Source: Octopus vulgaris (Eukaryota). Taken from it: a stretch of DNA of 64,000 bases. The stretch lies in the NCBI GenBank assembly GCA_951406725.2, contig OX597822.1, positions 5,890,001-5,954,000 of the forward strand. The letters are read 5' to 3'. Both the position numbers and the translations under genes were made by a program. This document shows, in pieces, positions 6,833-63,049 of this stretch. How positions within the stretch are numbered: position 1 is the stretch's first letter; each line of letters begins with the position of its first letter. The notes under the pieces were generated by a model. That model worked only from the letters and a program-made list of their open reading frames with translations. It was not told the DNA's origin and did no database searches.

Positions 6833-7475
6833 GCTGTTTAACGTCTGCTTTCCATGCTGGCATGGGTTGGATGGTTTGACTGAGGACTGGCAAGTCAGGA
6901 GGCTGCACGAGACTCCAATCTGATCTGGCAAGGTTTCTACAGCTGGATGTCCTTTCCAACGCCAACCACTCCGAGAGTGTAGTGGGTGCTTTTTACTTTC
7001 CACTGGCACAGGGGCCAGTCAGGCAGCACGGGTCTTGACCATGCTTGAATGGTGCTTTTTACATGCCACCAGCATGGGAGCCTGTCCAGTTGTACTGGCA
7101 TCGGCCATGCTCAAATGGTCCTTCTTATGTGCCACCAGCGTGGGAGCCTGTCTAACAGCACTGGCATAAACATTGATCAAATGGTGCATTTTACGTGCCA
7201 CTTGCATGGGAGCCTGTCCAGTTGTACTGGCATCGGCCAAGCTCAAATGGACCTTTTTATGTGCCACCAGCATGGGTGCCAGTCAGGCGGTACTGGCATC
7301 GGCCATGACAATGATTTCACTTGATTCAACAGCATATTGCCCGACGATTGAAGGGTACTCTTAAAGGGGCCGGTTATGTGACACTGGCATAGGCCACAGA
7401 TACGATCTCACATGGCTTGCTGGGTCTTCTCAAGTACACCATATCTCCAAAGATCTTGGTTGCTTGCCAGGTCTC
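6820..7475 (-). mobile_element. RTE-type LINE 3' UTR fragment with internal tandem repeats and (TGA)n tail
   Basis: Reverse-complement match to the 3' end of the 18653-20517 element; further copies near 9548, 21661, 30100 and 36180. Confidence 0.8.
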
Positions 7476-14276: not shown

Positions 14277-14472
14277 GGGAGAGTTTATGAAAATAAACAA
14301 AAGACGAAGACAGGTGGTGTACAAAACAAACAGATGTATTAGTATAACGCTCAGGAATAGAAAAAGGCTTTTACATTTCGAGCCTACGCTCTTCTACGGG
14401 AAGGGACACAGAAAAAACAAGGAGAGAAAAAAAGGAGAGAAAAACTGTGTGTAATAGCTAACGATCTATCAT
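14277..14472 (-). mobile_element. (TA)n-inserted ~200-nt module with minimal HHR (retrozyme/pLTR-like)
   Basis: Minus strand CCGTAGA-A-GAGC GTAG GCTC-GAAA-TG-TA-AAAG; homologous to 38640-38850. Confidence 0.75.
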
Positions 14473-14888
14473 GTGTATATATATATATATATACAACAAA
14501 AATTAAAATTTTGGATACAAAGTTACCAAAGATTTCGTATCCACAAAGCCAGACTCTATAAAATGACTAAAACATAAAGATTTTCTATGTCGCGGACATG
14601 AGAAAATGCTCAGAAATTGAGATTTAAGTTTTAACATATAAAAATGTTAATGAGCATGGGTTGCCTCCCTTGCACCAGAAGATAAAACAAACTTTATAGA
14701 CCCCCAAAAAGCATAACCAGCAAACGGGGAGTTCCAAATTTCCAGTAGGTAGCCCTTGAAGTACACACATTTAGAAAACACTTCTTTAAGACTATTTAAT
14801 GCATCAGGAGTTTAACCCTTAAGAATTTTGGCTCTCTCCATGATTCAGATTTTGCAATGACCACTTCCATTAATATATGGGCCTGGAG

Positions 14889-17783: not shown

Positions 17784-17788
<5 letters not shown>

Positions 17789-17965
17789 AAATTTACAGAA
17801 AAACAAAAGATGAAGACAGGTGTATAAACAACAAACAGGTGCATTAGTTTAACGCTTGGGAAGGTGAGAAAGTCTTTTACATTTCGAGTCTATACTCTTC
17901 AACTGAAAGGAACATGTGGAAATAAACAGAGAGAGAATAGCAGTCAATCATGGTGGCTACACATG
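17784..17965 (-). mobile_element. (TA)n-inserted ~180-nt module with minimal HHR
   Basis: Minus strand CAGTTGA-A-GAGT ATAG ACTC-GAAA-TG-TA-AAAGA (17872-17910). Confidence 0.75.
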
Positions 17966-33263: not shown

Positions 33264-33680
33264 AAGGCACCAAACTGGCAGAATCGTTAGCATGCCGGGT
33301 GAAATGCTTAGCGGTATTTTGTCTGCCGCTACGTTTTGAGTTCAAATTCCGCCGAGGTCGACTTTGCCTTTCATCCTTTCGGGGTCGATTAAATAAGTAC
33401 CAGTTATGCACTGGGGTCGATATAATCGACTCAATCCGTTTGTCTGTCCTTGTTTATCCTCTCTGTGTTTAGCCCCTTGTGGGTAGTAAAGAAATAGGTA
33501 TTTTGTCTGCCGCTATGTTCTGAGTTCAAATTCCGCTGAGGTCGACTTTGCCTTTCATCCTTTCGGGGTTGATTAAATAAGTACCAGTTACACACTGGGG
33601 TCGATATAATCGACTTAATCCCTTTGTCTGTCCTTGTTTGTCCTCTCTGTGTTTAGCCCCTTGTGGGTAGTAAAGAAATA
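33264..33680 (+). mobile_element. SINE family C with duplicated 3' half
   Basis: Two tandem B-box/Nin/tail units; 16-bp TSD GGTATTGTTAACGAAG (33251 and 33681). Confidence 0.9.
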
Positions 33681-34217
33681 GGTATTGTTAACGAAGTGAC
33701 AAATTGGTTGAATCAGTAGAACATAACATAAAATGCCTTGTGGTATTTGTCTCAGCTCTTTGCATTCGGAGTTGAAATCCCACTGGGGCTAACTTTGCTT
33801 TCCATGTGGGGTGGTTTCGCAGAATTTTTAGCGTGTTGGATAAAATTCTTTATGATATCTATTTCAGCTCTAAGCTGGCAGAATCCTTAGCACACTGGAC
33901 AAATTGCTACTAAACATTTTGTCTGAGTTCAAATTACATTGAGGCTGGCTTTGCCTTTCATCCTTTTTTGCGGTCAATAAATTAAATGCCAGTCAACTAC
34001 GGATGCTGACGAATACAACTAGCTTCTCACCCAAAATTTCAGGTCTGGTGCCCATAGCAGAAAGGGTATTTATTCCAGCTCTTACTCTCTTAGTACCCAG
34101 GTAGGTATGGTAAATTTGTTTGTATGCAATCAACAGCAAGTTCGCTGGGTTAGCTCAACTCCCTACTGTGTCAGGAACTAATGGCTTCTTACAAATGAGA
34201 TATCAAAAAGAATTCAG

Positions 34218-38393: not shown

Positions 38394-38582
38394 CATGTTG
38401 AACCATTAATCCCTACAAATTTTTTTCTCTCTCTGTTTTTTTTCCCTCTCAGTCCTTTCTGTTGAAGATTGTTGGCTCAAAACGTAGAAGATTTTTTCCA
38501 TTCTTCTCAAGCATTAAACTAATACACCTGCTTGTTCTTCCTTCACCTGTCTTCATCTTTTGTTTTCTGTAAAATTGAACTA
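38394..38582 (+). mobile_element. (TA)n-inserted module with decayed minimal HHR
   Basis: CTGTTGA-A-GATT GTTG GCTC-AAAA-CG-TA-GAAGA; homologous to 17784-17965. Confidence 0.7.
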
Positions 38583-38587
38583 TATGC

Positions 38588-38618
<31 letters not shown>

Positions 38619-38621
38619 CAT

Positions 38622-38850
38622 ATGCCTGAAGTCAGAACGCCATGATAGATCGTTAGCTCCTACATGCATTTTTTTCTCTCCTTGTTTCTCTCCTTGTTTC
38701 TTTTCTGCGTATCTTTCTGTTGAAGAGCGTAGGCTCGAAATGTAAAAGACTTGTTTTATTTCTATTCCTGAGCGCCATACTAATACATTTGTTTGTTTGT
38801 ACTCCACCTGCCTTCGTCTTTTGTTTATTTTCGTAAACCTTCCCGTTATA
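38622..38850 (+). mobile_element. (TA)n-inserted module with minimal HHR (variant core)
   Basis: TCTTT-CTGTTGA-A-GAGC GTAG GCTC-GAAA-TG-TA-AAAGA (38712-38749). Confidence 0.8.
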
Positions 38851-45420: not shown

Positions 45421-45625
45421 TAGTCAATCAAAGAAACATAGATAAGAGAAAAAGCAAACAAATGTGGGGACGTAGCACAAGCAATGTATTAGTATGATAC
45501 TCAGAGAAAGAAGAGAGTAGTTGTTTTACGTTTTATGCATAACCCTTCTTTGGAAACAGGAAAAACTGTGAAGTCCAAAGGGAAAGAAGGAAGAAGGAGG
45601 AAAAAAATCACCAACAGTCTATGCA
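45421..45625 (-). mobile_element. (TA)n-associated module homologous to 62560-62763, HHR decayed
   Basis: Shared pyrimidine tract; minus strand GTTT-CCAAAGA...AAAACGTA-AAAC. Confidence 0.6.
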
Positions 45626-51978: not shown

Positions 51979-52229
51979 TTAACAAAATCATAATTCTCAA
52001 CATTTGGTCTCCTTCCTTGATAATCTATCATTGCTAATCATAAATAACAAGAACATTAAAACATCCAGCTTGCTGTTATTTAGAATCTCTTGGTATGACT
52101 TGGGACAACTCATGTAAAACAAAACAGCAACAACAACAACAAAAGCCAAAAGCCTTGATGCAGTACCAGACAATGGCTCTCATGGTTTCTGATCATCATC
52201 ATCATCATTGTCATCGGATTGAGCAGTGT

Positions 52230-53440
52230 ATTATACCATTGTGTAGTGAATTACACCACTGTTTAATGAACTATGCCACTGTTTAGTGAATAAACCATTG
52301 TGTAGTAGATTATACCATTCTGTTGTGAATTATACCACTGTGTAGTGAATTATGCCAGTGTGTAGTGTATTATACCACTGTGTAGTGAATTATACCACTG
52401 TGTAGTGAATTATGCCAGTGTGTAGTGTATTATACCACTGTTAGTGAATGATATCACTGTGTAGTGAATCATACCACTGTTGTTGTACCATTGTGACTGT
52501 TTTGTAGAGAATTATACCACTGTGTAATGACTTGCCTTTTTCTGCAATGAATCATGTGGAGGTGTATGGCTTAGGGATTATTGTGTTGCACTTTTTATCA
52601 TAAGATTGTGGCTTTGTTCCTGGACTGGGAAATGCATTGTGTTTTTGAGCAGAACACTTTATTTCAGGTTGCTCCAATTCACTCAGTAGGCAAAGGATGA
52701 GTAATCTTGAGAGGTATCACTTGGGAGTATATATGCAAAAGAATCTGGGAAACTGGCCTTATGAGACAATGGTTCTGGAAGGACCTTTGATGTTTTTTGT
52801 TGTAGTGTGATATACCACTGTACTGTGAATTATGTGAATTATACCACTGTGTAGTGAATTATATCACTGGGTTGTCTATTAATTATACCGTTCTAGAGTG
52901 AATTATAATACCTATTTCTTTACTACCCACAAGGGGCTAAATACAGAGAGGATGAACAAGGACAGACAAAGGGTTTAAGTCGATTACATCGACCCCAGTG
53001 TATAACTGGTACTTAATTTATCGACCCCGAAAGGATGAAAGGCAAAGTCGACCTTGGCGGAATTTGAACTCAGAACGTAAAGACAGACGAAATACCTATT
53101 TCTTTACTACCCACAAGCGGCTAAACACAGAGGAGACAAACAAGGACAGACAGACGGATTAAGTCAATTATATCGACCCCAGTGCGTAACTGGTACTTAA
53201 TTTATCGACCCCGAAAGGATGGAAGGCAAAGTTGACCTCGGTGGAATTTGAACTCAGAACGTAATGGCAGACAAAATACTGCTAAGCATTCTGCCCGGCG
53301 TGCTAACATTTCTGCCAGCTCGCATTGTGAATTATGGTGCTGTGTAGTATATTATCTCATTGTATGATGAATTATAACACTGTGTAGTTAATTAGATCCC
53401 TGTGTAGTAAATTACAAAACTTTGTAGTGAATTACACAAA
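52230..53440. repeat. 20-bp minisatellite (ATTATACCACTGTGTAGTGA)n interrupted by SINE B (52553-52785) and SINE C (52911-53323)
   Basis: Tandem units visible on both sides of the insertions. Confidence 0.9.
52911..53323 (-). mobile_element. SINE family C with duplicated 3' half
   Basis: Same architecture as 33264-33680. Confidence 0.9.
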
Positions 53441-62052: not shown

Positions 62053-62445
62053 ACAGGAGTGGCTGTGTGGTAAGTAGCTTGCTAACCAGCCACATGGTTC
62101 CGGGTTCAGTCCCACTGCGAGGCATCTTGGGCAAGTGTCTTCTGCTATAGCCTCGGGCCGACCAATGCCTTGTGAGTGAATTTGGTAGACGGAAACTGAA
62201 AGAAGCCTATCGTATATATGTATATATATATATGTATGTGTGTGTCTTTGTTTGTCCCCCCACCATCGCTTGACAACCGATGCTGGTGTGTTTATGTCCC
62301 CGTCACTTAGTGGTTCGGCAAAAAGAGACCGATAGAATAAGTACTGGGCTTACAAAGAATAAGTCCCGGGGTCGATTTGCTCGACTAAAGGTGGTGCTCC
62401 AGCATGGCCGCAGTCAAATTACTGAAACAAGTAAAAAAAAAAAAA
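62053..62445 (+). mobile_element. SINE family A
   Basis: Full-length match. Confidence 0.9.
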
Positions 62446-62559
62446 TCTATATATTCATATGTATATACATACACACACATGTGTATGCCATTGTGTCTGT
62501 GTCTCCCACTGCTGTTTGTGTTGTTGACGTATACATATACATATATATATATATATTGC

Positions 62560-62763
62560 ATGTGTACCGTTGGCGATTTTTTTCCCTCCGTCTTCCCTTC
62601 CTTGGATCTTTCCTTTTCCTATGTTTCTGACGAAGAGCTCCACTCGAAACGTTAAACACCCCTTCTTTCCTTCTTTCCTGAGCGTCCAATAATACTAGAC
62701 TTGTTCCATGTCCTCGCGTTGTTGTGGTTTCTCTTGGTGTTTTCATGTTTGGATTAACATTAT
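62560..62763 (+). mobile_element. (TA)n-inserted ~200-nt module with a canonical minimal HHR
   Basis: TA-flanked; same layout as the 14277, 17784 and 38622 modules. Confidence 0.8.
62622..62658 (+). ncRNA. Minimal type I hammerhead ribozyme
   Basis: TGTTT-CTGACGA-A-GAG(CTCCA)CTC-GAAA-CG-TT-AAACA: 5-bp stem I, intact core, palindromic ACGT in place of stem III. Confidence 0.8.
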
Positions 62764-62767
62764 ATAT

Positions 62768-62854
<87 letters not shown>

Positions 62855-63049
62855 CATTTATATATATATATATGCATATATACTGTATTAGATATTTAGG
62901 TGCAAAACATATAAATATATATATAAATGTATGTGTGTTTATGGTTTGCACCTAAATATCAAATAATTATTGTAACACTCCATAACAAAGTATTTTATCA
63001 CTTCTTTTAATGAATTTTTAGAGTATTATTTAGCATTAATTATCCTACT

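Follow-up and report, generated by a model that had tools for sequence, protein, structure and literature searches.

The module at position 62560

The window analysed here is a 64-kb stretch of the genome of Octopus vulgaris. Close to its right end, between two TA-rich microsatellites, lies a short non-coding module which is very probably the solo 3′ end of a Penelope-like element (PLE). Published work is cited below by PMC number or DOI. The features of the locus are as follows.

62542..62555, no strand: (TA)7 on the 5′ side of the module, likely part of the target microsatellite (repeat scan)
62558..62763, + strand: solo 3′ end, or pseudo-LTR (pLTR), of a PLE, family A, U4 sub-lineage (A1) (sequence identity)
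62622..62658, + strand: candidate minimal type I hammerhead motif (sequence, parse and the published consensus in the supplement of PMC4209133)
62622-62626 (5′ arm) and 62654-62658 (3′ arm), + strand: stem I of the hammerhead (sequence)
62627-62633, + strand: core CTGACGA (sequence)
62634, + strand: extra A (sequence)
62635-62645, + strand: stem II, 3 bp in this copy (sequence, parse)
62646-62649, + strand: GAAA (sequence)
62650-62653, + strand: CGTT, the palindromic CG followed by UU, with the predicted cut after 62653
62764..62882, no strand: TA/CA microsatellite on the 3′ side of the module, likely the target (repeat scan and TA enrichment test)

The 5′ end of the module lies 69 nt upstream of C3. 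The module is 94.5% identical over 201 nt to a natural copy (L003; fetched loci are designated by L and a number), 89% identical to the module found downstream of a reverse transcriptase (RT)/GIY-YIG ORF in L051 and L053, and 81-88% identical, over 154-187 nt, to modules that flank the ORF in L089, L090, L093 and L094. The hammerhead had been placed at this point by a preliminary description made from the letters alone, and the sequence bears this out, including the predicted cut. In the same way, the call of a minimal type I hammerhead fits the PLE consensus (PMC4209133). CUGANGAH, the G10.1-C11.1 pair of stem II, GAAAN, the palindrome, the NUH site and stem I are all present in 62560 and in A1, and the other lineages depart from this set at U4 or A6. 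The word "intact" suits the core of 62560 (CUGANGA and GAAA) and not its stem II, whose fourth pair is broken by the A at 62642, a position where 24 of the 30 top matches have G. The fifth pair of stem I is peculiar to 62560, C standing there in 28 of these 30 matches. As for the extra A, it had been described as tolerated in a viroid hammerhead, but it is more than a viroid oddity, being conserved in PLE hammerheads (PMC4209133).

A covariance-model search, proposed as a check, did not recover the motif, Rfam giving no hammerhead match in the 64-kb window or on the module. The Rfam matches of the window (150 of 155 listed) are to microRNA- or snoRNA-type models, lie on microsatellites and stay below gathering scores. 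A tRNA-like head is absent, as had been stated: ARAGORN finds 0 tRNA genes in the window and Rfam no tRNA on the module. The claim that there is no ORF is true of the window, where tblastn of the element protein described below retrieves no protein fragment in the 64 kb, but not of the family, whose long copies carry an RT/GIY-YIG ORF.

The other modules of the window

Five further modules are homologous to that at 62560.

14277..14473, - strand: solo 3′ end, family B, decayed core (82.5% identical to the family B copy L098; parse)
17784..17965, - strand: solo 3′ end, family C (family core CTGTTGA in 20 of 27 parsed copies)
38394..38582, + strand: solo 3′ end, closest to family C, decayed, GAAA lost (80% identical to the family C copy L254)
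38622..38850, + strand: solo 3′ end, family B (core CTGTTGA here, CTGTCGA, that is A6U, in the family)
45421..45625, - strand: old decayed copy closest to family A (69% identical to L003, E 9e-10; core not intact)

The six modules had been described as one family abutting (TA)n. Their homology and their TA-rich flanks stand, but with a mean column identity of 63% they fall into at least three families, A (62560 and 45421), B (38622 and 14277) and C (17784 and 38394). Only 62560, one of the six, has a canonical core (intact CUGANGA and GAAA). The module at 38394 lies head-to-tail with the family B copy at 38622, with (TA)n between them. Modules of different families also adjoin across (TA)n in L097, L111 and L130, as they do in the window at 38394-38850, which is expected from repeated targeting of the same microsatellite.

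Other repeats are found in the window and in the fetched loci. A SINE-like dispersed repeat with an internal TA/TG tract occupies 62053-62425 of the window and recurs in many fetched loci; it may resemble the tRNA-derived SINEs of octopus. Tandem repeats lie at 33313-33686 (period 184), 52907-53279 (184), 1666-1928 (146), 7039-7307 (66) and 52225-52530 (20), and the longer ones look like tandem SINE-type units. Elsewhere, L031:1-450 resembles a decayed mariner-type transposase. The end of an open frame at L054:3861-4181 resembles a RUN-domain exon, so that this insertion may sit in an intron of a host gene.

Copy number and insertion targets

The genome searched comprises 2.8 Gb in 227 contigs. 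A first-look search with the module yielded 4392 candidates, and 39 other full-length scored loci are 93-95% identical to it. The exact 34-nt core pattern occurs 973 times and the reversed control 0 times. The high copy number foreseen from the window alone is thus confirmed. An unselected sample of U4 copies was formed by the first 70 of the 973 exact-pattern places, picked on the core alone; a recognisable 3′ end is present in 65 of them and absent from 5. Three TA units lie within 14 nt of the 3′ end in 57 of these 65, versus 8% of control positions in the same loci, the background of three TA units being 4% in the window. For 30 copies with the U4C core, (TA)n adjoins the 3′ end in 24 of 27, versus 12% in the control. 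Targeting of (TA)n by the module family is real, and the microsatellite homing suggested earlier is upheld.

The parent Penelope-like element

Two of the 30 top matches, L013 and L024, share a long sequence upstream of the module. This extension has 1072 candidates in the genome, and in 19 of 20 fetched loci it is directly followed by the module in the same orientation. Farther upstream, L051-L053 contain a CA-rich spacer and then GIY-YIG and RT frames oriented as the module. A search with the RT fragment gave 11115 candidates, many of them in open frames of 800-1000 aa, and the flanks of the ORF were inspected in 12 stretches around ten places with long frames. Modules lie on both sides of the ORF in L085, L088, L089, L090, L094, L095 and L096 and across L091/L092, that is wherever both sides are in view, L093 showing the upstream module only. 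The module has the sense orientation at both ends of full elements, with a spacing of 5.1-6.2 kb around the ORF. L085-L087 form a tandem array, the tandem or partial-tandem arrangement from which pLTRs arise, and at tandem junctions the end of the module passes through a TATATA tract into the 5′ UTR. The element, whose unit is about 6.2 kb, is thus organised as pLTR, 5′ UTR, ORF (948 aa), CA-rich 3′ UTR, pLTR and (TA)n; the 3′ UTR of family A is long (1.3-2.7 kb). The hammerhead motif lies in the pLTR on the sense strand, and several insertions are accompanied by inverted partner copies, which are typical of PLEs.

The ORF is intact, 948 aa from Met, in L088, L092, L095 and L096. It carries RT and C-terminal GIY-YIG domains recognised by their motifs, the Pfam matches (RVT_1, E 0.001; GIY-YIG, E 0.011) both being below the cut-off. 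These motifs are a GxKF-like GLRF, DKG, YIDD, a CX4CxxC linker at residue 817, and IY-CxxC-YVG followed by two His at about 883 and 898. The CxxC between the IY and YVG halves and these two His make up the CCHH motif of the endonuclease. Homologues number 729 among 8000 scored, the named ones being from marine and freshwater invertebrates; a search of solved structures with the ORF gave no match. Judging from these motifs, the element likely belongs to the Neptune clade. Its linker conforms to CX2-5CxxC, which excludes Penelope/Poseidon and is common to Nematis.

At the DNA level, the ORF piece linked to A1 modules matches the intact ORF with 82% identity, and the pLTRs borne by intact ORFs are only 72-74% identical over 154 nt to the 62560 module. 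For the exact U4 sub-lineage of 62560, no intact ORF was found among the loci retrieved, its ORF-linked copies being broken and 5′-truncated. RT/GIY-YIG fragments were also seen 5′ of the modules of family B, in 10 of 25 loci chosen for an upstream extension, and 5′ of those of family C, in 3 of 30 loci unselected for it. The ORFs reached in this way are of the same kind, with about 58% protein identity.

The module at 62560 is, with a probability of about 95%, the pLTR or 3′ end of a PLE, likely of the Neptune clade; the solo copies of the window would likely have been inserted into (TA)n by the protein of this element, and the hammerhead is predicted to be weakly active at best. It is a leftover end repeat, neither a free-standing retrozyme nor a new kind of element. 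The preliminary description was right to name Penelope-like enzymes as mobilisers, full copies having an RT/GIY-YIG ORF flanked by the module. It had also proposed a separate non-autonomous retrozyme family, which is contradicted by the colinearity of the module with the 3′ end and pLTR of the autonomous element. Comparison with pLTRs thus gave the outcome that it had foreseen as removing the novelty.

Several particular copies deserve mention. L085-L088, L091-L092 and L095-L096 belong to a very young lineage, whose intact 948-aa ORFs are 99-100% identical on several contigs. Some of its copies stand in 6.2-kb tandem arrays, and there are dozens of equal-scoring matches. On these sequence grounds, this lineage is likely active. 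In L020, at about 250 nt upstream of the module, the ORF is missing and the 5′ UTR continues directly into the module; this arrangement was seen once and would reflect either an internally deleted copy or a template switch. The upstream pLTR at L090:2254-2419 is fused by a deletion into the ORF, leaving an 806-aa frame devoid of the normal N-terminus. L053:127-942 (minus strand) holds a fragment of a second, different Penelope-like family with a Cys linker (GIY-YIG Pfam E 4.6e-6).

Sequencing runs also contain the element. The queried stretch occurs in 20 runs, whose RNA nature is a guess, no RNA run being on record. Assembled contigs of four runs cover most of the pLTR, 5′ UTR and ORF, as a coverage in which no start, end, strand or level can be read. 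Two runs, each from a different study, have contigs that jump over 901 nt in the 5′ part of the ORF (L088:2633-3535); the jump has no GT-AG ends and likely represents a deleted copy rather than an intron.

The 5′ ends of the solo copies and the proposed insertion mechanism

The 3′ ends of the copies are precise and adjoin (TA)n. Their 5′ ends vary, most of them lying 60-87 nt upstream of the core. In the unselected U4 sample, 63 of 70 copies reach no farther than 87 nt upstream of C3, 42 of the 70 having their 5′ end in the 13-nt zone from 75 to 88. The frequency of 5′ ends per base climbs from 0.003 to 0.106 in this zone and is down to 0.002 beyond 140. Past this cliff the flanks share nothing, except in long copies and in one pair with an unrelated repeat. 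A1-like U4C copies behave similarly (18 of 19 end by 86). AT microhomology with the target explains two peaks of 5′ ends, but not the cliff.

The cliff could mark a transcription start inside the upstream pLTR, an explanation to which we give roughly even odds. An Inr-like motif stands at the cliff in A1 and not in A2, and so lends this explanation little weight. Published work does place the promoter and the start site in the pLTR (PMC2377424). However, the upstream pLTR of full young elements extends 367-1713 nt past the core in five out of five, and it reaches at least 183 nt in L089 and about 101 nt in L094. Somewhat less probable, and based on predicted folding, is a stop of the reverse transcriptase at a hairpin located there. 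Across 300 nt of A1, the 30-nt window of greatest predicted stability (-9.1 kcal/mol) coincides exactly with the cliff, and the youngest lineage, in which 5 of 8 GTCATA-type copies extend past 200 nt, is devoid of this hairpin; nevertheless, the U4C A1-like lineage and one copy of family B have a weaker hairpin. The cliff could also be caused by something else, neither a start site nor a hairpin stop.

The known biology of PLEs suggests that the RNA would start in or upstream of a pLTR and that the endonuclease would nick the (TA)n target. Reverse transcription would then begin at an internal site of the RNA, the pLTR/5′ UTR junction, which lies 325 nt before the ATG and has a TATATA tract that could pair with the primer. 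Such pairing would differ from what a Poseidon element does in vitro, where the start site has no homology to the target (PMC11167929). The cDNA would usually end after about 200-220 nt and leave a solo module. Measured from the predicted cut, insertions end about 105 nt farther downstream and begin 60-110 nt upstream, never at the cut itself, and a hammerhead about 105 nt inside the 3′ end therefore sets neither of them. To cut, it would need a dimer or the protein of the element. If the start site lies inside the pLTR, solos would be full copies of the segment from start to priming site. It is conceivable, although doubtful, that the thousands of unit-length solos are complete cDNAs, from the pLTR start site to the internal priming site, which internal initiation regularly yields and which seed SINE-like families, and that these very successful lineages let the core drift and kept the stems.

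Less probable readings: an independent solo family or a retrozyme

One alternative is that solos, once pLTRs, may have become a short non-autonomous family of SINE type that propagates itself with the Penelope-like protein supplied in trans. This would agree with the near-fixed length of 63 of the 70 unselected copies, with the jump of the 5′-end rate at 75-88 nt and with the flanks past the cliff, unrelated save for the exceptions given above. A start site inside the module, extrapolated from PMC2377424, could moreover keep solos transcribed. However, all alleles common among 65 solo U4 copies are present among 22 long copies as well, the comparison yielding no solo-only lineage or allele, and the divergence of solos (92.5% identity) matches that of long copies (92.2%). 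Furthermore, no shared flanking DNA points to the re-copying of a solo, and solos are devoid of the sequence downstream of the pLTR that one element tested in vitro needs (PMC11167929). Self-copying of this kind is improbable.

A non-LTR retrozyme, whose tandem units would be cut by the hammerhead into circles, copied and re-inserted, is less probable still. Such elements derive from pLTRs (bioRxiv 10.64898/2026.07.22.740005), and a unit of about 200 nt with a type I hammerhead and no ORF in the window recalls them. Against this, the window holds no tandem array of modules, and in 100 unselected loci a second match was seen in only 15, about half of them inverted; L174 is the single locus with directly head-to-tail units, and none has three. 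Tandem units each with a hammerhead were thus seen neither in the window nor in these 100 loci, nor was a non-autonomous unit distinct from the ORF-bearing element, with which the module is colinear. Moreover, insertion ends do not coincide with the cut site, and the minimal form of the hammerhead is assigned to PLEs, not to retrozymes (PMC7229834).

Drift of the hammerhead core

The youngest lineage, that of the 99-100% identical intact ORFs, has the core CCGACGA (U4C), a GUC site and a U-U mismatch in stem I. The U4C pattern has 7392 exact copies genome-wide. With positions 4-5 left free, 5865 copies are found, of which 973 have TG, and these positions read CG in 82, TG in 12, CA in 3, AG in 2 and TA in 1 of 100 listed matches. 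The ratio of U4C to U4 is about 5 to 1. U4 is a real, older sub-lineage that includes 62560, T being present in 20 of 22 long A1 copies and pairwise identity being 92%, versus 95% for U4C solos; some U4 solos carry alleles of the C4 lineage. The position A6 has changed in the other families: the family B core is CTGTCGA in most of 29 parsed copies, and that of family C, CTGTTGA, likewise has A6U. An origin of all canonical CTG cores by CpG decay of CCG was considered and rejected, given 12 TG against 3 CA among the 100 listed matches; the T of the long A1 copies also contradicts it.

It may tentatively be proposed that the hammerhead is vestigial in all families, and that the segment of stem II and GAAA is retained for protein binding or promoter function rather than for catalysis. 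This proposal bears on the ribozyme alone and does not conflict with the pLTR explanation. The U4C core and stem I mismatch of the intact-ORF lineage and the A6U of families B and C agree with it, since U4C and A6 changes (A6C) lower hammerhead activity in vitro (PMC3088659). So do the predicted monomer folds of typical family A copies, which pair core bases with the cleavage side, and the finding that a Poseidon element can do without cleavage in vitro (PMC11167929). On the other side, U4C still supports a viroid in vivo (PMC3088659). Furthermore, the conservation of core and stems across genomic copies, on which the ribozyme call had been made to depend, is found: despite a protein identity of only about 58%, the families have in common both stems as well as G5, G8, A9, the extra A, GAAA, the CG palindrome and U16.1. 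Stem I shows a swap from G-C to C-G between A and B/C, which counts as one inherited event only.

The family itself is ordinary: PLEs are abundant in octopus (PMC13282606), and it has been known since 2014 that their end repeats carry hammerheads. The family can serve as a test system, near-identical intact copies with a weakened core standing beside an older lineage with a canonical one. If the drift of the core with kept stems is true, the octopus genome offers a natural experiment on the role of the ribozyme in retrotransposition. The 5′ cliff is a route to mapping the RNA template and to the origin of short non-autonomous repeats from pLTRs.

Comparison with known systems

Neptune-clade PLEs are reportedly dealt with by Arkhipova (2006). 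In the literature searched on octopus, Penelope and hammerheads, solo pLTRs, U4C and A6U, neither the family nor such PLE cores are described, though Lunse et al. 2017 may have them. PLEs make up 6.83% of one octopus genome, in 190 families, 30 Penelope-type families being recently active; ribozymes go unmentioned in the excerpted part of that source (PMC13282606). Solo pLTRs are mentioned in PMC3846280, and further background is provided by PMC6962438, PMC8967140 and PMC6765202.

The closest likeness is to Neptune (PMC8557442), with its single ORF, RT followed by a C-terminal GIY-YIG, CX2-5CxxC linker, CCHH and DKG, as well as pLTRs, partial tandems, inverted partners, microsatellite targets and a hammerhead near the 3′ end. 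The Cys linker is associated both with (TA)n targeting and with the Neptune and Nematis clades, and the role of the hammerhead in PLEs is called unclear (PMC8557442). Unlike Neptune in this account, the octopus element has a CA-rich 3′ UTR of 1.3-2.7 kb in family A, non-canonical cores in whole lineages and a sharp 5′ cliff that results in thousands of near-unit solo ends.

The minimal hammerheads of metazoan PLEs sit in the end repeats, mostly as single dispersed motifs from truncated elements (PMC4209133). They share with the octopus motif a U-rich 5′ flank, CUGANGAH, G10.1-C11.1, GAAAN, a conserved base between positions 9 and 10.1, a palindrome at 15.2-16.2 and a short stem I, and they are inactive as monomers and weak as dimers (PMC4209133). 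The octopus motif differs by its stem II of 4 bp (3 bp in 62560), and the U4C and A6U lineages lie outside the published consensus. Octopus is not among the species of the supplement of PMC4209133 as searched, which includes other molluscs.

In the Poseidon element PAc of the green anole, initiation is internal and hammerhead cleavage is protein-assisted (PMC11167929). As in octopus, its targets are AT-rich and the ends of its insertions are set inside the RNA, not at the hammerhead cut (PMC11167929). However, PAc is devoid of the Cys linker and starts about 111-118 nt into the ORF at an AC-rich stem-loop, whereas the 3′ end of the octopus element lies at the pLTR/5′ UTR junction, at the TATATA tract upstream of the ATG.

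Non-LTR retrozymes (PMC7229834; bioRxiv 10.64898/2026.07.22.740005) are likewise short non-coding units related to pLTRs, with a type I hammerhead. Animal retrozymes are nevertheless defined there as tandem units, with canonical hammerheads and expression as circles, whereas in octopus the copies are scattered, run colinear with autonomous elements and have the 3′ end of the element as their boundary. Finally, the Naiad elements of octopus are also Penelope-like and (TA)n-targeted, but they have an N-terminal endonuclease and no canonical hammerhead (PMC8557442), whereas the endonuclease of the octopus pLTR element is C-terminal.
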